Notes under the pieces: model-generated
What the model was told of the DNA's origin: nothing
The model's database searches: none
Seen by the model: the letters and a program-made list of their open reading frames with translations, nothing else
Assembly (NCBI GenBank): GCA_026014495.1
Contig: JAOZIF010000165.1
Location: forward strand, 1 to 41,900
DNA from: Candidatus Bathyarchaeum sp.
GTDB taxonomy: Archaea; Thermoproteota; Bathyarchaeia; Bathyarchaeales; Bathyarchaeaceae
DNA: 41,900 bases
Direction: 5' to 3'
In this document: positions 9,767-16,734 of the stretch, piece by piece
How positions within the stretch are numbered: the first letter of the stretch is position 1
How the letters are laid out: the number at the start of each line of letters is the position of its first letter
Translations under genes and position numbers: made by a program

Positions 9767-9821
9767 TTTTTCAGAAAAAGCTATTTTTCAACAATGTTCT
9801 GCTATTAGTTTTCTAATATGC
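9767..9821 (-). repeat. Dispersed hairpin repeat A, copy 2
   Basis: Minus strand GCATATTAGAAAACTAATAGCAGAACATTGTTGAAAAATAGCTTTTTCTGAAAAA, starting about 10 nt after the EamA stop. Confidence 0.8.
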
Positions 9822-10712: not shown

Positions 10713-10839
10713 AAAACTGTACGGAGACTATTAAACAAAACCATTTACCCCTTTTGCTGAGCGTGCCTAGAAGGCATTTTAAATTGTGATTTTAGTTTCA
10801 TAAACAATAAATTAGTTTCAATCTAAAAGCCATTAGAAA

Positions 10840-10965
10840 ATGTTGGGCCTGTTAGTTTTTGTAGTGTCTTTCCTTTGTCTTTTCATTGGAACTATACTGT
10901 TTCCCAGCATGCCGCCTGGGCAACTACTATGTGACGTTTTCGGAAACTCGATACTGTTAAGTTAA
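10840..10965 (+). pseudogene. 5' fragment of a small membrane-protein gene truncated by the transposon left end
   Basis: ATG 10840: MLGLLVFVVSFLCLFIGTILFPSMPPGQLLCDVFGN, running into the left TIR, where it stops (TAA 10963-10965). Confidence 0.5.
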
Positions 10966-10972
10966 GTTACCT
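10950..10972 (+). repeat. Left terminal inverted repeat
   Basis: GATACTGTTAAGTTAAGTTACCT; starts like IS6-family ends (IS26 GGCACTGTT). Confidence 0.9.
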
Positions 10973-10984
10973 AAAAAACTAGTT

Positions 10985-12187
10985 TCAAGTCAGTGTTTTT
11001 TGGCAGGTTCCACTTTTGAATCTCTTGATTCTCTGTATGTGAGTCTTTTCAACATACTTCTTTTCAGCTAAATATTCAGGTAAATCCATGTGTTTTATTA
11101 CACCTCTAAGATTTAGTGCTTCCCAAGCCAACTGTTCATTATTAATTAGCGCCTCACACCGTTGTAGCTTGGACTTGGACGAGAACGAATCCAAAAACTT
11201 TTGCCACGAAATACACGAATTGTCTTTTGGATACATGTCAGCTATTCTTTCAGTACCAACAACTCTATAATAACCATAGTCATTACGGTTAAAAAGACGC
11301 AATTTTCTTTCTTCAGTCTCAGGGGTTGGACCTAAACCAATTCCACCAACATCAAATTTTGGACGTTTATGCTTTTTTCCCAATCCATCAAAACCAAACC
11401 CGAAAGAAAAAATGTTTTTTGAAGTCACAGCTTCCCTTTTTTTGGATAACCGACCTGCACTTACATTATAAGCGTAAAGAAATGTGTTATCCAAAACTCT
11501 TTCTTGAACTAATAATTTGAAAACATCGAGGAGGTCAGCCTCCATTGTGATGGGGTTCCTTGCAGCGAAATCATAATAAAAAGCGTTAATTTCGTTCTTT
11601 AGATAGAATAAAATTAATTCATTTGTGTACTGGTATGGTAGTTTTGGTATCGCCCCCATAACAGGTTTACCATTATACCTCCGTAGATATTCCAAAGTAG
11701 CAGAAATAAATTTGAGATATTTCTGGAATTTTGCATCAGAATTTATCCCATCAGTAATTAAGGGAATGTTTGGTATTGGTACGATACTTGAATTGGCATG
11801 TGCTCTATTTAGAATAAACTGCCAAATAGTATCGGATGGATACCTTTGTATAATGCATTCAAAAATACAAATATCAAACTCATGTTGTGAGCTATTATTT
11901 GATTTAGGCTTTTGTGCGCGTATTCTTCTTTCAAAAGCTTGTTTTACGGTCATATCCTTAACGAGCTTATTGAGCGGTCTGTTTTTGTTACTTATTTCAC
12001 AATAAATTTCGTTAAGCCCTCGTGTGCCTGAGGCTACATTTTCATTGCTGTTAATGAGTTTGTTATTATATGCCACAATAGGTGTTTTTATGGAAAAATC
12101 ACTAGCAATACGAAGACTTTTAGTTGAGTATAATGTTTCATCGTTTTTGTCTTTTTCAAGCAGTTTAACTTCTAGTCTAGTCATCAT
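10985..12187 (-). CDS. Hypothetical protein, probable tRNA-guanine transglycosylase (TGT)-like TIM barrel
   Basis: N-terminal SIKTPIVAY resembles TGT IETP; C-terminal LINNEQLAWEALNLRGVIK resembles TGT HNL...IREAI; no DSGG or CxCxxC motif. Confidence 0.5.
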   Translation of the reverse strand: MMTRLEVKLLEKDKNDETLYSTKSLRIASDFSIKTPIVAYNNKLINSNENVASGTRGLNEIYCEISNKNRPLNKLVKDMTVKQAFERRIRAQKPKSNNSSQHEFDICIFECIIQRYPSDTIWQFILNRAHANSSIVPIPNIPLITDGINSDAKFQKYLKFISATLEYLRRYNGKPVMGAIPKLPYQYTNELILFYLKNEINAFYYDFAARNPITMEADLLDVFKLLVQERVLDNTFLYAYNVSAGRLSKKREAVTSKNIFSFGFGFDGLGKKHKRPKFDVGGIGLGPTPETEERKLRLFNRNDYGYYRVVGTERIADMYPKDNSCISWQKFLDSFSSKSKLQRCEALINNEQLAWEALNLRGVIKHMDLPEYLAEKKYVEKTHIQRIKRFKSGTCQKTLT

Positions 12188-12197
12188 TTGCCCCTAT

Positions 12198-12680
12198 TTA
12201 TTTTGAACATCTGAATGTTGATTTGTTAAGTTTATTCAAAAGCTTTTCCTTGATTAATTGGTCTATTATGCCCAAATGATTCATTAGATTCAATAAACCT
12301 TCAGTGCCTGTTTTCTTTAATCCTAGTTTGTCTGCTACTCTTCTTCCTGCACCTTCATCAATCACACATTCAAAAGGTTGATTTTGTTTTTTTAACTCTA
12401 AAGCATACTGTAATACTTCAACTTCACCATAGTCGAGCATTGGATAAAGTTCTTTAAATGTATCAAATTCTTTTTTCGATACTTGTTTAGTAATAATCCA
12501 TTTTTCATCTATCGCTTTAGCGAGTCTAGATTTTCCCGGTTCTTTTTTTACCTCAAATGCAACACCATCAGTTACAATAAGTGAATAACCAATCAAAGTA
12601 AGGGCATACAAGTACTCCCCATCATCCATCTCCGTCATAAAACCAATAATCGTTGAGGCATCCAAAATAAGCGAAGTCAT
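12198..12680 (-). CDS. PIN-domain toxin (DUF3368/COG2405-like)
   Basis: LILDAS, VAFE, LDYGEVE, VIDEGAGRRVADKLGLKKTGTEGLL; acidic PIN residues retained. Confidence 0.8.
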   Translation of the reverse strand: MTSLILDASTIIGFMTEMDDGEYLYALTLIGYSLIVTDGVAFEVKKEPGKSRLAKAIDEKWIITKQVSKKEFDTFKELYPMLDYGEVEVLQYALELKKQNQPFECVIDEGAGRRVADKLGLKKTGTEGLLNLMNHLGIIDQLIKEKLLNKLNKSTFRCSK

Positions 12681-12686
12681 TCCACA

Positions 12687-13271
12687 TCACTCAGCGAAAA
12701 CGGAGACACCCTTTGATTGTAATAACGCGATTACATCTTCTTGATATAACCCAGAAATTTCAGCAGCTTTCCCAAGACTTATTTTCTTTTTTTTGAACAA
12801 ATTAACAGCGACTTCTTGTCTCTTTGTTTCTATTCTCTTGAACTCTAACGAGTCATCTCGCATGTCTGGGTATGAGTAATAAATGAACCCTAACAACTCA
12901 TCTTTTGTCAAGTCATTCAGAAACAACTTCATTTCTGAAATCGAGTTCATTTTAGAAGTAAATTCTATCTCCAATTTTTTTGCGATTTTTTTCCCATATT
13001 TTGTAAGTTGTTTTTGTTTCGGGTCAACAATCTTTTCTATACGTAGTCTATCAGTCTGCTCATCAGCTAATTCACTATATGGCCCCATAAAATCGGATTC
13101 AAACTCAGCCTCTTCTGCTAAGTCAGGCAATATTTTTGAAATAAGGAACAACTCTTTTTGATACCATAATTTGCCTTTTATAGGTTCCAAATTATTTGCA
13201 GCATAGAGAAGAATGGTTATTTTTTGTGTTAATGATAGGCGTTTCTCTATGTTATTGCTCGTCTTCGACAC
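12687..13271 (-). CDS. Antitoxin-like fusion: SocA/Panacea(DUF4065)-like N-domain plus UPF0175 HTH
   Basis: GKLWYQKELFLI...FESDFMGPYS; C-terminal AVNLFKKKKISLGKAAEISG. Confidence 0.7.
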   Translation of the reverse strand: MSKTSNNIEKRLSLTQKITILLYAANNLEPIKGKLWYQKELFLISKILPDLAEEAEFESDFMGPYSELADEQTDRLRIEKIVDPKQKQLTKYGKKIAKKLEIEFTSKMNSISEMKLFLNDLTKDELLGFIYYSYPDMRDDSLEFKRIETKRQEVAVNLFKKKKISLGKAAEISGLYQEDVIALLQSKGVSVFAE

Positions 13272-13422
13272 TCTCCTCAGTCACAGGTTCAAGCAAGATA
13301 ACCTTAACTTGCTTATGTATCCACGCTTTTGGCAAGTATATCCTTCCCGTCGTACCTGACACGGCAACTCTCCTTTCTAATACTTGATAACCTGAAACTT
13401 TAACTTCCATTTCGGCATTCAT
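13252..13422 (-). CDS. DUF2080-family transposon-associated small protein (AbrB-like), not in ORF track
   Basis: MNAEMEVKVSGYQVLERRVAVSGTTGRIYLPKAWIHKQVKVILLEPVTEESVEDEQ; alternative start 13410; overlaps the start of the antitoxin gene. Confidence 0.8.
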   Translation of the reverse strand: MNAEMEVKVSGYQVLERRVAVSGTTGRIYLPKAWIHKQVKVILLEPVTEESVEDEQ

Positions 13423-13547
13423 AATAATAGCTATATTATAGCTTATTTATATCTTTTTTTAATTATTTTATGGCTATTTTATAGCTAATAAACGTAAGGT
13501 ATATATACTTGGGTATCCTAAAGGATACCTGTAAGAGCGTGAAAGAA
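13423..13547. promoter_or_regulatory. Divergent promoter region with two TATA boxes and three palindromes
   Basis: Minus-strand AAAAAAAG-ATATAAAT at about 13445-13460; plus-strand GTATATATAC at 13499-13508; GCTAT-N3-ATAGC at 13430-13442 and 13473-13485; GGTATCCT-AA-AGGATACC at 13512-13529. Confidence 0.7.
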
Positions 13548-14456
13548 ATGAACTGCAAATATTGTGACTCTGAGAACATAATCAAGAAAGGAGTCAGACA
13601 TAACAAGCAAACTTACAAGTGTAAAGACTGTGGTCACATTTTTGTTGCTAACGGCAAATTTTCAAGAATGCGAAACGACAAGCACATCATAGTTACAGCT
13701 CTTAATCTCTACTATGACGGCTTATCTCTCCGAAAAACACAACGCAACTTAGAACAGATTTTTGGAGAGAAAATATCTCAAGTCACAATATTGAACTGGA
13801 TTAAGAAGTATTCACGACTTGTAAAAGAATACATGATTTCTCAGGTACCACAACTTTCAGGATTATGGCACGAAGATGAAACAGTAATCAAGTGTGAAGG
13901 AAGAAACGTTTGGTTCTGGGAAATGATAGATGAAGATACAAAATTTATGGTTGCTTCTCACCTATCTAACACAAGAACGTTTAATGATACAGTAGCCATC
14001 TTCAAGAAGGGATTTGAGCAGAGCAAGGTTCGACCTAAAGCGGTTTTTGTCGATGGCTGCAACGCTTACTATCGAGCGTTCAACAAAGTGTTCTACACCC
14101 TCCGAAAAGATACTCGCCCAGAGCTAGTGCAAAGAGTTGGAGTAAGAACTAGAGAAACAAACAACATAGTTGAAAGACTGCATGGTACACTTAAAGATAG
14201 AACAAAGCCAATGCGAGGACTCAAGAATTATGAATCCACAAAACTACTGCTTGAAGGATACTCAGTCCACTACAATTGTGTTAGACCGCACCAAAGTCTA
14301 GGCGGTAAAACTCCCGCTCAAGCTACAAGAATGAACGTTCCAAACAATTGGAAAGGCTTAATTGATGAAGCAACGAAACATGAAGCAATTCTATTAGCTA
14401 AAGTGTTCGGTGAAAAAACGGAAGAAAAACAGGGAATAAAGGTGGTCAGTAAATGA
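13548..14456 (+). CDS. IS6-family DDE transposase with N-terminal zinc ribbon
   Basis: CKYC...CKDC, HTH, WHEDET / VFVDG / NNIVER catalytic triad, HYNCVRPHQSLGGKTPA. ATG 13548 is preferred to TTG 13509, which lies just after the TATA box. Confidence 0.9.
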   Translation: MNCKYCDSENIIKKGVRHNKQTYKCKDCGHIFVANGKFSRMRNDKHIIVTALNLYYDGLSLRKTQRNLEQIFGEKISQVTILNWIKKYSRLVKEYMISQVPQLSGLWHEDETVIKCEGRNVWFWEMIDEDTKFMVASHLSNTRTFNDTVAIFKKGFEQSKVRPKAVFVDGCNAYYRAFNKVFYTLRKDTRPELVQRVGVRTRETNNIVERLHGTLKDRTKPMRGLKNYESTKLLLEGYSVHYNCVRPHQSLGGKTPAQATRMNVPNNWKGLIDEATKHEAILLAKVFGEKTEEKQGIKVVSK

Positions 14457-14620
14457 AAAAAATCTTAGTAGCTCTACCAAAGGGTGTAATTGACATTTTA
14501 GACAAAGAAGTTGTTGGCAAACTAGGCGAAGGTTATAGTGACACATTACGCACAATTATTATGAATTGGTTAGGCGAACAGGGTTACTTATCAAAAGGTG
14601 GAAAAAGTGAAAAAATCTAA
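14453..14620 (+). CDS. Ribbon-helix-helix (CopG-like) protein, 55 aa, not in ORF track
   Basis: MKKILVALPKGVIDILDKEVVGKLGEGYSDTLRTIIMNWL...; ATGA overlap with the transposase stop. Confidence 0.75.
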   Translation: MKKILVALPKGVIDILDKEVVGKLGEGYSDTLRTIIMNWLGEQGYLSKGGKSEKI

Positions 14621-14759
14621 AGTTGACAGAGAACCAACCGAAGAAATAGACCTTTTAGATGATATGCTCTCAAGTCTAGTTGACTTGCTTATTGAGAAAG
14701 GCGTTATTACAGAAGAAGAATATGAGAAGCGAATTAAGCAACGAGTTAAAATAAAATAA
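14607..14759 (+). CDS. Small acidic protein with SHOCT-like motif, 50 aa, not in ORF track
   Basis: GTG start after GGTGG RBS; LVDLLIEKGVITEEEYEKRI. Confidence 0.65.
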   Translation: MKKSKVDREPTEEIDLLDDMLSSLVDLLIEKGVITEEEYEKRIKQRVKIK

Positions 14760-14764
14760 ATTTT

Positions 14765-14959
14765 CTAATTTTTCTCTTTTCCCAAATATATTAACAACAT
14801 TGCCAATAACCCAAGAATAGTTATTTGAATTGAATAACTCAGCACTTGGTAGTTAACGCAAAAATAAATGAACAAAAGTAAGTCAATAAAGGCGATAATT
14901 AACCCAGCTGTGAATAATATCCAATTCATAGTAACCAATAATTTTGAAGCAAAAGACAT
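14765..14959 (-). CDS. Small two-TM membrane protein (passenger gene)
   Basis: 64 aa with two hydrophobic segments; starts 16 bp inside the right TIR. Confidence 0.55.
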   Translation of the reverse strand: MSFASKLLVTMNWILFTAGLIIAFIDLLLFIYFCVNYQVLSYSIQITILGLLAMLLIYLGKEKN

Positions 14960-14975
14960 ATCTTAAATTTTCGGC

Positions 14976-14998
14976 AGGTAACTTAACTTAACAGTATC
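14976..14998 (-). repeat. Right terminal inverted repeat
   Basis: AGGTAACTTAACTTAACAGTATC, the exact reverse complement of 10950-10972. Confidence 0.9.
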
Positions 14999-15208
14999 GT
15001 AGTGGACGATAAAATATATGCAATTGGAGGCCAACAAGGTACTGCTCAAACCCCAACGAAATACTGCAACACAAACGAAGTTTACACTCCAACGGGTTAC
15101 ATTCCAGAGCTTTCTTCTTGGTTAGCTCTTCCCTTGGTTATAACAGGTGTATTGGTTGCTGTTTTAGTTAAGAAAAAGTTACAAAAAACTGCTTGTACAA
15201 GAGATTAA
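14999..15208 (+). pseudogene. 3' remnant of a Kelch-repeat surface protein with a PEF-CTERM-like tail
   Basis: VVDDKIYAIGG...NTNEVYTP (Kelch repeat), IPEL, TM segment, KKK; begins exactly at the TIR junction. Confidence 0.75.
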
Positions 15209-15218
15209 TAAAAAAACA

Positions 15219-15256
15219 TTTTTTCAACAATGTTCTGCTATTAGTCTCCTAATATG
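15219..15256 (-). repeat. Dispersed hairpin repeat A, copy 3
   Basis: Minus strand CATATTAGGAGACTAATAGCAGAACATTGTTGAAAAAA. Confidence 0.8.
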
Positions 15257-15306
15257 ATTTTGTCTGTTGGGCAGGGATGCTCTGTTACTCTTGTGGTTTA
15301 TGTCGT

Positions 15307-15894
15307 TCAGGATGTTTTGTTAGGGCGCCTGTACATTATGATTGATAACAGGGTTGTTGCAATGAAGAGGGGCAGAACAAATAATGTGGAGAACTCAGGT
15401 ATGTCGTTTTCTTGATTTTTAGTGTCAATTGTGAAATAGATTGTGTCAGCCCAAGAAGCTTCATAGTCTGCGCTGCCCGGATAAGTTGGTTCGAACGATG
15501 CACTTAAAGGGCTTGCTCAATGGTAATCATATATGCCACACAGAACATAGATAGTTAAACTGTGTGAGCCCTCAGGCAATTCTGGCAAGGTTACATATCC
15601 AGTTGCTTTGTTGACAACATGTAGTTCTGTAGGGTTTTTGGGGACTAAGGGTATAGTGCCTTCATATTTTTCGTCGATGCTGTAAGTTAAAGAACAGTCT
15701 ACGCCCAATCCAATACCGAAAGTGAGGTTTAGAATTAAACAGTTGGAATTGTAGGTTCTGTTGAGGGGAGAATAAACGATGGTTCCAGACGAAAGGCAAA
15801 TGGAATCTTCCGATTCAGCCGCAACAACATGAGCATACAGAAGCGTGATAGAGGAAAACAACAAGAAAATAAATATTGACTTAAGTTTACTCAA
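15307..15894 (-). pseudogene. PEF-CTERM surface protein with an in-frame TGA at 15517-15519
   Basis: Signal peptide; frame continues 69 codons past TGA (YDYH*ASPLSASFEPTYPG...NDIPEFSTLFVLPLFIATTLLSIIMYRRPNKTS). Confidence 0.75.
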
Positions 15895-16066
15895 TTCAAC
15901 TCACTTTATGATTTGTTTATTTTTTTGGTAAACAACTGCAGCGATTGTGACAACAACACAATTACATGCAGGGCTCTTTGTCACTAATGTACAATCAAGA
16001 AGTGTCGTTTAGCTCTGCTTGCGGAACACAGTTGTTCCGATTGTGGAACAAAGAGTTGTGGGTTGA

Positions 16067-16537
16067 TTAATAATTTGGGTCTGAATGATGAATTTTGGTT
16101 TTTCTGCGTGCCCTTAGGCCCTCTACTAGGAATAAAACCAAGGCTGCGGCGGTTATTGATGTTAACAGGAGAAAGAAGATTTTGAATTGTGATGTTTCGA
16201 CGGAGAAATGAATTGCTAGAACTACAAGTTCTGTAATTAGTATTGCTGAGAAAATGGATGAATAAACCAAGGGATTAGGAATAAGTCTCCTATCAATCCA
16301 GGTGTAACCGTGGACTGCAACTTTTTCTTTTGCAATATAATTGCCTTCCTCGTGCTTTGTCACCAAGCCCATGAGTTCTAGTTTTTGAAGGTGCCTGTAT
16401 GCAACGCTGGGACTGCTCAGGTTCACGCCTCTCATTACATCTCTTGGACCAACTGGATGCTTCGCTTTAACGATGTACAAGTATATTCGCAGTGTTCGAC
16501 CTTGTAGTCCGTCAGTGTCTAAATGCGATACAGCCAA
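16067..16537 (-). CDS. Winged-HTH regulator with C-terminal TM helices
   Basis: PVGPRDVMRGVNLSSPSVAYRHLQKLELMGLV, then two hydrophobic segments; RBS GGGGGT before TTG. Confidence 0.75.
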   Translation of the reverse strand: MAVSHLDTDGLQGRTLRIYLYIVKAKHPVGPRDVMRGVNLSSPSVAYRHLQKLELMGLVTKHEEGNYIAKEKVAVHGYTWIDRRLIPNPLVYSSIFSAILITELVVLAIHFSVETSQFKIFFLLLTSITAAALVLFLVEGLRARRKTKIHHSDPNY

Positions 16538-16674
16538 CTACCCCCTGTTATACTTGCGTCAAGGTTTCAATTGTAATATAAGTTTTTACAAAAATGAGAA
16601 AATACGGAGCACAATAAACAAATGATTTAATCAATCATCAAAAAGGAAACACAAACTCATAGTATTGCTTGAAA

Positions 16675-16726
16675 TTTCTGAAAAAACCTAGTTTTCAACA
16701 ATATTCTGCTATTAGTCTCCTAATAG
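16675..16726 (-). repeat. Dispersed hairpin repeat A, copy 4
   Basis: Minus strand CTATTAGGAGACTAATAGCAGAATATTGTTGAAAACTAGGTTTTTTCAGAAA, 8 nt after the HDAC stop. Confidence 0.8.
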
Positions 16727-16734
16727 GAGTGGAA

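Follow-up and report, generated by a model that had tools for sequence, protein, structure and literature searches.

According to a 2021 review, insertion sequences (ISs) of the IS6 family are 0.7 to 0.9 kb long, have 14-bp repeats, generate 8-bp duplications and carry cargo by way of pseudo-compound transposons; the longer members, which have a zinc finger, make up clade h, and ISDsp3 is the sole member with a passenger gene (PMC7986276). Harmer and Hall described IS6 ends as starting with GG and having a G at position 7, and they argued that the archaeal and the long zinc-finger groups fit poorly in IS6/IS26 proper and should leave the family (PMC6807381). Their compilation holds 37 archaeal entries, two of which, ISH15 and ISPfu5, have 9-bp duplications (PMC6807381). 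Our subject is a 4,049-bp element at positions 10950 to 14998 of a 41,900-nt stretch of DNA, here called the window, from Candidatus Bathyarchaeum sp. (contig JAOZIF010000165.1 of assembly GCA_026014495.1). The element very probably belongs, as a structurally complete copy, to an archaeal family of unit transposons, or transporter ISs (tISs), that resemble IS6 and combine a conserved core with exchangeable cargo.

A unit transposon with a conserved core

The limits of the element are set by a pair of terminal inverted repeats (TIRs), which are perfect over 23 nt, as the first-pass annotation of this DNA had claimed. The left TIR (10950-10972, plus strand) matches GATACTGTTAAGTTAAGTTACCT exactly and the right TIR (14976-14998, minus strand) is its exact reverse complement. 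With C10949 and G14999 included, a repeat finder lengthened the pair to 24 nt (10949-10972 and 14976-14999). No third match to the TIR with up to 3 mismatches occurs in the window, where 100 shuffles gave an expectation of 0. Across the whole assembly, a 2.19-Mb metagenome-assembled genome of 196 contigs that is 93% complete, these two are again the only matches at that threshold, and the 4,049-bp unit is present as a single copy. Scattered copies of the TIR without its transposase, which would have spoken against a transposon of this kind, were not found. The TIRs enclose one transposase open reading frame (ORF) and seven other ORFs of 53 to 400 aa, with gaps of 12 and 16 bp between the cargo and the ends, and the GC content is 33 to 38% in the element and 39 to 44% in its flanks. 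One TIR pair therefore surrounds a transposase together with its passengers, and there is no second IS copy, which is the arrangement that defines a unit transposon or tIS.

Relatives of the element support the same reading. Our scan, which took one genome per species across prokaryotes, returned 46 loci, and in 33 elements, that of the window included, both ends could be placed around the transposase (in the comparative sets, the labels L, G, and C denote loci, genomes, and contigs, respectively). All 33 elements carry the end sequence GATACTGTTAAGTTA, with no more than 3 mismatches, around a homologous transposase, and the first 15 nt of the left TIR of the window are common to the ends of the other 32. 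Lengths range from 1,870 to 7,988 bp, the smallest element consisting of three genes, and in most members the TIRs are perfect over 22 to 28 nt. Duplications of the target were exact and 9 bp long in 29 of the 33 elements; one further element had 8 bp and another 9 bp with a mismatch, and the window copy and L040 had none. The check that the first-pass annotation had proposed, a search for the same ends with different cargo, was therefore positive at 32 other loci, 29 of them with exact 9-bp duplications, and its view that one TIR pair and one IS6-type transposase move the cargo as a unit, and not as an IS26-style compound transposon, is borne out.

The same evidence bears on whether the 4-kb unit is one transposon at all. 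It could be a minimal IS of the core only that happens to lie between chance inverted sequences, or a pseudo-compound structure in the style of IS26. This is what the prior expectation of IS6 elements of 0.7 to 0.9 kb would favor, and nothing else favors it. Yet the core has no TIR-like sequence directly bordering it in the window at up to 3 mismatches, the transposase is present in one copy only, and at the 32 other loci copies of the end motif flank the transposase at spacings of 1.9 to 8 kb and are directly bordered by 9-bp duplications. We regard this alternative as scarcely credible.

The family is spread across Bathyarchaeia, Nitrososphaeria, Candidatus Methanomethylicus, and the cultured methanogen Methanolobus vulcani B1d. 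The Methanolobus element (L061 8954-12161; NZ_VIAQ01000015.1) is 3,208 bp long and has 22-nt perfect ends and the 9-bp duplication CCTTATGGG, while a 2.05-kb element (L067) is flanked by the duplication CGGTAAAAG. Three other species of the genus have transposases that are 72 to 75% identical to that of the window, together with the first 15 nt of the TIR at spacings of 3.4, 5.4, and 5.7 kb; these three elements hold different genes and have a 9-bp direct repeat immediately outside their ends. Among 401 sampled Bathyarchaeia species genomes, a close transposase (E <=1e-80) was found in 13, at one to three copies each, so the family is patchy and of low copy number within Bathyarchaeia. No relative of the transposase was found on viral contigs. 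One 14-kb contig classed as viral (IMGVR_UViG_3300032069_000851; L091 5407-5428) does have a single exact copy of the 22-nt end sequence of the window element, which has neither a partner end nor a transposase and is a solo end or relic.

What the family holds in common is narrowly delimited. At the nucleotide level, the window element is homologous to 30 others only over positions 13496 to 14760, a 1.26-kb core, and at the ends. The left edge of this core falls at 13496-13501 and the right edge at 14758-14760, which is the stop of a 53-aa gene. The core opens with a promoter region (13496..13547, plus strand) that contains the TATA-like box TATATATA at 13500-13507 and the 18-bp palindrome GGTATCC-TAAA-GGATACC at 13512-13529. 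A TATA-like box and an 18-bp palindrome of the type GGTATC-N6-GATACC are kept upstream of the start codon across 29 elements. The right half of the palindrome and the bases that follow it (13523-13537, GATACCTGTAAG) resemble the TIR at 10950-10961 (GATACTGTTAAG). We considered GATACCTGTAAG as a relic internal end and do not claim it as one, because its resemblance to the TIR fails to covary in the Nitrososphaeria members, and it may be due to chance.

The transposase gene (13548..14456, plus strand) follows. Its ORF opens at TTG 13509 (13509-14456, 315 aa), a codon that lies inside the promoter elements, and the homologues begin at MNCKYC; the true start is therefore probably ATG 13548, which gives a protein of 302 aa with an N-terminal zinc finger (CxxC...CxxC), a helix-turn-helix, and a DDE domain. 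In an alignment of nine sequences (the window copy, seven relatives, and ISCpe7), the invariant residues include the four cysteines of the zinc finger (C16, C19, C38, and C41) as well as D123, D182, E222, and K229. The catalytic triad (D123, D182, E222) is thus intact, in agreement with the first-pass annotation.

Two small genes complete the core. The first (14453..14620, plus strand) encodes 55 aa and has a start that overlaps the transposase stop (ATGA); it is kept in 30 of the 32 related elements at 43 to 83% identity. Its product shows a short strand segment at the N terminus and then two helices, a pattern that suggests a CopG-like (ribbon-helix-helix) protein. Profile searches returned no match, and one against solved structures produced no meaningful hit. 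The AlphaFold2 (AF2) monomer has low confidence (a predicted local distance difference test [pLDDT] of 64), and the homodimer prediction, with a score of 0.35 (mark, 0.42), is evidence in neither direction. The second gene (14598..14759, plus strand) overlaps the first and encodes a small helical protein of 53 aa, or of 50 aa if it starts at 14607. It is kept in 28 of the 32 related elements, and its matches are weak, SHOCT-like, and below threshold.

Taken together, these features suggest how the element would work. The machinery consists of the 23-nt TIR pair, the 1.26-kb core operon, and the TATA box and palindrome that precede it, and the DNA between the core and each end is exchangeable cargo. 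The transposase would bind both ends and insert the whole unit by a 9-bp staggered cut. The IS6 family in the ISfinder sense transposes exclusively by way of cointegrates, which host recombination resolves; by analogy with IS6 and IS26, the present element would likewise form a replicative cointegrate that is then resolved by the host. The CopG-like protein would probably repress the core promoter through the 18-bp palindrome.

Relation to IS6 and to other known systems

The first-pass annotation had assigned the element to the IS6 family. The transposase scores 142 bits against the NCBIfam IS6 equivalog (NF033587, transpos_IS6), which has a cut-off of 125, and it matches Pfam PF13610 (DDE_Tnp_IS240) with an E value of 2.7e-21. 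K229 lies seven residues past the catalytic E222, so the DDE + K/R signature of IS6 is present. The ends read GATACTGTT, with G1, G7, and CTGTT at positions 5 to 9; base 2 is A, except in L032 and L055, where it is G. The assignment to IS6 is based on the transposase profile and on this end motif, which agrees only in part with the GG start of IS6, and the duplication, the size, and the number of genes fall outside the norms of the family. The 8-bp duplication of IS6 is seen neither in the window copy nor in the 29 relatives with 9 bp, and in place of a compact IS of about 0.7 to 0.9 kb (up to 1.76 kb) that holds a transposase only, there are 4,049 bp and eight ORFs.

Among named elements, the best match to the transposase is the ISCpe7/ISCbo1 group of Clostridia, which is clade VII of Harmer and Hall (2019) and clade h of Varani et al. 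(2021). Identity is 27 to 30% over residues 16 to 297, the N-terminal zinc finger included, and both have the DDE/K signature. ISCpe7 itself, however, is 1,274 bp long and has a single gene, for a 340-aa transposase with an extra zinc-ribbon insert, and an 8-bp duplication (PMC6807381), whereas the present family is archaeal, spans 1.9 to 8 kb, combines a three-gene core with cargo, and makes 9-bp duplications. When we scanned the fetched stretch of the ISCpe7 locus for inverted repeats, no clear terminal pair was found. A transposase phylogeny had also been proposed in the first pass. In a small tree, the family lies nearest to the ISCpe7 pair and far from the short IS6 transposases, although the join to the ISCpe7 pair is long branched and left unresolved by the tree.

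Other comparisons show the same combination of likeness and difference. IS26, IS257, and IS6100 are recognized by the same NCBIfam and Pfam models and have ends with G1, CTGTT at 5 to 9, and G7, but they are about 0.8 kb long with one gene, no zinc finger, a GG start, and an 8-bp duplication (PMC7986276, PMC6807381). Classical IS6 elements carry cargo only in pseudo-compound form, between two directly repeated copies, while a single copy with its own ends does so in the present family (PMC7986276, PMC6807381). ISDsp3 of Dehalococcoides shares the plan of an IS6-type transposase and a passenger gene within one TIR pair; it is a 1,456-bp element with one hypothetical passenger and an 8-bp duplication, present in one copy in one bacterium (PMC7986276, PMC6807381). 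The present family, in contrast, occurs in at least four lineages of archaea, and its varied cargo, which lies to the left and to the right of the transposase, amounts to as much as ~6 kb. The archaeal IS6 entries of ISfinder (ISH14, ISHme1, ISPfu1, ISMja1, ISC774, and others) share archaeal hosts and, in several cases, a GA start. They differ in that they are 671 to 853 bp long, encode transposases of 206 to 237 aa that lack the zinc finger, and in no case have cargo (PMC6807381). The ISHme1 transposase aligns over the catalytic domain only, at 29% identity, and sits on a very long branch in the small tree. Finally, Tn7-like and Tn3-family elements are likewise unit transposons with one TIR pair and variable cargo rich in restriction-modification, toxin-antitoxin, and other defense genes. 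The machinery described here is unrelated to theirs, with no TnsABC, TniQ, resolvase, or res site, and the elements are much smaller; the 29 duplications of the family also give no evident sign of attachment-site targeting.

Given these differences, the element may lie outside IS6 altogether, in a separate and unnamed archaeal family that is related to the ISCpe7 group at the level of the superfamily and has a chemistry of its own, for example cut-and-paste with a 9-bp stagger. This would account for 9-bp duplications in 29 of 33 elements where nearly all IS6 entries have 8 bp (PMC6807381 tables), for an identity of only 27 to 30% to ISCpe7-type and ISHme1-type transposases, for the very long branches that separate the family from the short IS6 transposases, and for the three-gene core, and it would follow the argument of Harmer and Hall for excluding the archaeal and long groups (PMC6807381). 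Nevertheless, the transposase scores above the curated NCBI cut-off for IS6, the ends keep G1, CTGTT at 5 to 9, and G7 of the IS6 consensus, a lysine stands at E+7, and a 9-bp duplication is also given for ISH15 and ISPfu5, which ISfinder places among its archaeal IS6 elements. A separate family is possible on this evidence, although we lean toward an IS6-like one.

Additional transposase sequences occur in the genus. A second set, 36 to 39% identical to the transposase of the window, includes several members with one internal stop (for example, G020 C6:62341-63204, G006 C6:100178-101017, and G011 C3:151512-152348), and the genome of the window itself contains a relative with 26% identity at C126:864-1607. 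The second set and the C126 relative probably represent other IS6-like lineages.

The insertion site and the mobility of the window copy

The window copy lacks a direct repeat at its ends (left flank, ...GGAAACTC; right flank, GTAGTGGA...). Just outside the left end (10840..10949, plus strand), the translation gives the 36-codon start of a hydrophobic ORF that is cut by the element and for which no homologue was found. Just outside the right end (14999..15208, plus strand) are the last 69 codons of a gene for a Kelch-repeat surface protein (Pfam Kelch_1), cut exactly at the TIR. In frame from 14999, these codons specify the last Kelch blade and a C-terminal membrane anchor, and the product is 42% identical to the C terminus of a ~365-aa paralogue from contig C169 with a signal peptide, with Kelch repeats, and with the same C-terminal anchor. 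The left-flank ORF may be the signal peptide of the cut Kelch gene. However, the left and right pieces do not share a reading frame, and some 260 codons would have been lost.

Since the duplication is absent and the neighboring gene is truncated at the TIR, we infer a deletion after insertion. In the simplest reading, an adjacent deletion would have removed the duplication along with most of the Kelch gene, either by intramolecular (replicative) transposition or by recombination between two copies, and the element would have been left untouched in both cases. Deletions next to an element that leave no duplication are the classical result of intramolecular replicative transposition in IS26 (PMC7986276). 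By that analogy, the missing duplication and the truncated neighbor would fit an IS26-type adjacent deletion, with which they are compatible without proving it.

The surrounding region is itself variable. EamA and deacetylase genes that bracket it are syntenic in three genomes (G001, G018, and G006), and the interval between them (window 10713-16734; L086, L087, and L088) varies from 2.3 to 9.2 kb across the genus. Depending on the species, it contains genes for a glycosyltransferase, for Cthe_2159 or CotH/lamin-tail proteins, or for other secreted or anchored proteins. A metagenome scan for an empty site with the 20-nt left-flank junction hit one GC-rich contig, which was a chance match. Contig C7 of G020, considered as a shared locus, was also set aside, as the match is limited to two genes, that of a related element there and one homologous to the 156-aa flank gene of the window.

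An intergenic repeat of ~47 nt (consensus, GAAAAAAGCTAGTTTTCAACAATGTTCTGCTATTAGTCTCCTAATATG), with the small hairpin TATTAG-N4-CTAATA, is also found in the window. It lies outside the transposon, at 9775-9820, 15211-15256, and 16681-16728 on the plus strand of the window and at 41782-41747 on the minus strand. The genome of the window has 51 matches, the genomes of all the species searched in the genus have dozens each, and some copies precede a conserved CCGCACAGAAGTGTGAATAA.

A number of observations weigh against our reading of the window element as a complete IS6-like unit transposon. The window copy has no target duplication, is the only copy, and has no near-identical relative, the best being 79% identical over the core at the nucleotide level; the mobility of this very copy is therefore only putative. 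Nor was an empty site found: in each relative examined, different, unalignable genes fill the stretch from the EamA gene to the deacetylase gene. The 9-bp duplication, an A rather than a G as second base, and the multigene structure are departures from the definition of IS6. In addition, the ribbon-helix-helix assignment of the 55-aa protein would hold only as far as its sequence pattern is a guide.

The first of these observations is what would be expected if the element were an immobilized relic, that is, a former family member that is now fixed and looks intact because of its youth or because of selection on its cargo. The truncated neighbor, a sign of rearrangement after insertion, and the lack of a close copy elsewhere would agree with this. 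On the other hand, the two ends are perfect, none of the eight ORFs is interrupted, every invariant residue of the nine-sequence transposase alignment is retained, and an adjacent deletion leaves the element itself undamaged. We consider a relic unlikely and favor a structurally complete family member. The perfect TIRs do not carry the further suggestion of recent activity made in the first pass. They are the rule in this family and thus no sign of recency, and the copy in question is single and has no duplication.

Cargo and its implications

Seven passenger genes had been counted in the first pass. Five of these stand as cargo, namely a four-gene operon and a 64-aa ORF, whereas the 55-aa and 53-aa genes belong to the conserved core. 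The operon runs leftward on the minus strand from 13422. Its first gene (13252..13422) encodes a DUF2080 "transposase-associated" protein of 56 aa (NCBIfam NF033496, 47.3 bits with a cut-off of 22) and has a 20-nt overlap with the next gene. This DUF2080 gene is the sole copy among 25 genomes of the genus, 24 others having been searched, and it was not found in the other 32 elements. All three of the smallest genes of the window element have support, those of 55 and 53 aa from their conservation and that of 56 aa from its profile score. The second gene (12687..13271) encodes a protein of 194 aa with an N-terminal domain of no family and a C-terminal UPF0175 domain, a putative antitoxin or DNA-binding partner (Pfam, E 8.3e-11, residues 149 to 192; PADLOC PDC-S70 PDLC05075, E 1.3e-4). 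The third (12198..12680) encodes a putative toxin of 160 aa of the DUF3368 type, which is PIN-like; it matches the PDC-S70 component PDLC05071 of PADLOC with an E value of 6.8e-18, and its Pfam DUF3368 match is below threshold (18.8 bits; cut-off, 27.3). The adjacent 160-aa and 194-aa genes thus match both component profiles of PDC-S70, a candidate system of PADLOC that resembles type II toxin-antitoxin systems.

The last gene of the operon (10985..12187, minus strand) encodes a 400-aa protein for which no Pfam, NCBIfam, or PADLOC match was found. Its AF2 model (pLDDT, 83.6; predicted template modeling score, 0.86) has a fold like the TIM barrel of tRNA-guanine transglycosylase (TGT), and all of the top Foldseek matches are TGTs (E of ~1e-6, TM scores of 0.47 to 0.58, and 7 to 11% identity). 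There are no invariant cysteines in the alignment of its family, so a zinc site of the TGT type is unlikely. On the strength of the model, we regard the protein as a putative TGT-fold enzyme attached to the toxin-antitoxin-like pair. Its two closest homologues are 78 to 80% identical to it. Of the 401 Bathyarchaeia genomes, 8 had the protein, and within the genus it was absent from the 12 other genomes searched. That neither this gene (0 of 12) nor the DUF2080 gene (0 of 24) was found in the relatives searched fits import with the element. The cargo to the right of the core consists of the 64-aa hydrophobic ORF (14765..14959, minus strand), which has two predicted membrane spans; it is an ORF only, otherwise unsupported, and belongs to no family and has no homologue in the other elements.

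Three of these genes have a history that is not tied to the transposon. The UPF0175, PIN-like, and 400-aa genes recur as a trio in the related element L042, at 42 to 57% identity, and weakly in L043. They are also present in the same order in a genome from another family of Bathyarchaeia (G347 contig C3; L100 7001-9226), at 47 to 62% identity, where no TIR or transposase was found over ~7 kb on the upstream side and 8.8 kb on the downstream side. The trio thus exists independently as a three-gene module and was acquired by the transposon. Most likely, this would be a toxin-antitoxin or defense module that stabilizes or benefits its carrier.

Cargo of this general kind is carried throughout the family, and it differs even among the nine elements with the closest transposases (the starred clade in the tree). 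It includes five N6_N4 methylases, some of them fused to Mrr-type nuclease domains; three fused restriction-modification enzymes of the Eco57I type (methylases), one with a specificity subunit; a SacI endonuclease with a Dam-type methylase; three GmrSD enzymes; HicB, NYN, and ParA proteins; an SDH-type protease; PDC-S70; and many proteins of no family. As judged from sequence matches, the cargo that could be identified is mostly restriction-modification, GmrSD, and toxin-antitoxin genes.

One related element has two end sequences in tandem (L024 3890-3941, on contig C7 of G020, which is the same as L041 13658-13698). There, the outer end is of the "GACCC" type and complete, at 26 nt, and directly adjoins an inner end of the "GTGATG" type, which sister elements also have; it is to the outer pair that the 9-bp duplication belongs. 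A nested insertion with subsequent recombination between cores would explain this appearance and would be one possible route for the exchange of cargo.

With three core genes at the center, a cargo bay on either side, and 9-bp duplications, the architecture of these elements is unlike anything that we found described for the IS6 family, and so is their role as carriers. We found no paper on archaeal IS6-type elements with multigene cargo, although the full-text search had limited coverage and does not prove absence. A bolder interpretation, to which we give somewhat less than an even chance, is that these elements form a distinct, undescribed family of archaeal transposons that is a main shuttle of restriction-modification, GmrSD, toxin-antitoxin, and new immunity genes, and that the operon of the window is a new defense or addiction system with a base-exchange-type enzyme. 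If true, the shuttle would operate among Bathyarchaeia, which have been reported without CRISPR-Cas (a 2025 census counted 0 CRISPR-cas loci in 23 complete Bathyarchaeia genomes [PMC12669027]), and across to Nitrososphaeria and methanogens.

Because the boundaries between core and cargo are sharp and many cargo proteins belong to no family, these elements offer a practical route to new defense genes in archaea. Moreover, the presence of a member in the cultured methanogen Methanolobus vulcani B1d opens the mechanism to bench testing. This widespread branch in archaea, where several kilobases of exchangeable cargo travel with one copy, broadens the known repertoire of IS6-type transposases. For uncultured archaea, Bathyarchaeia included, such elements would be a tangible means by which innate immunity genes spread in a patchy manner.

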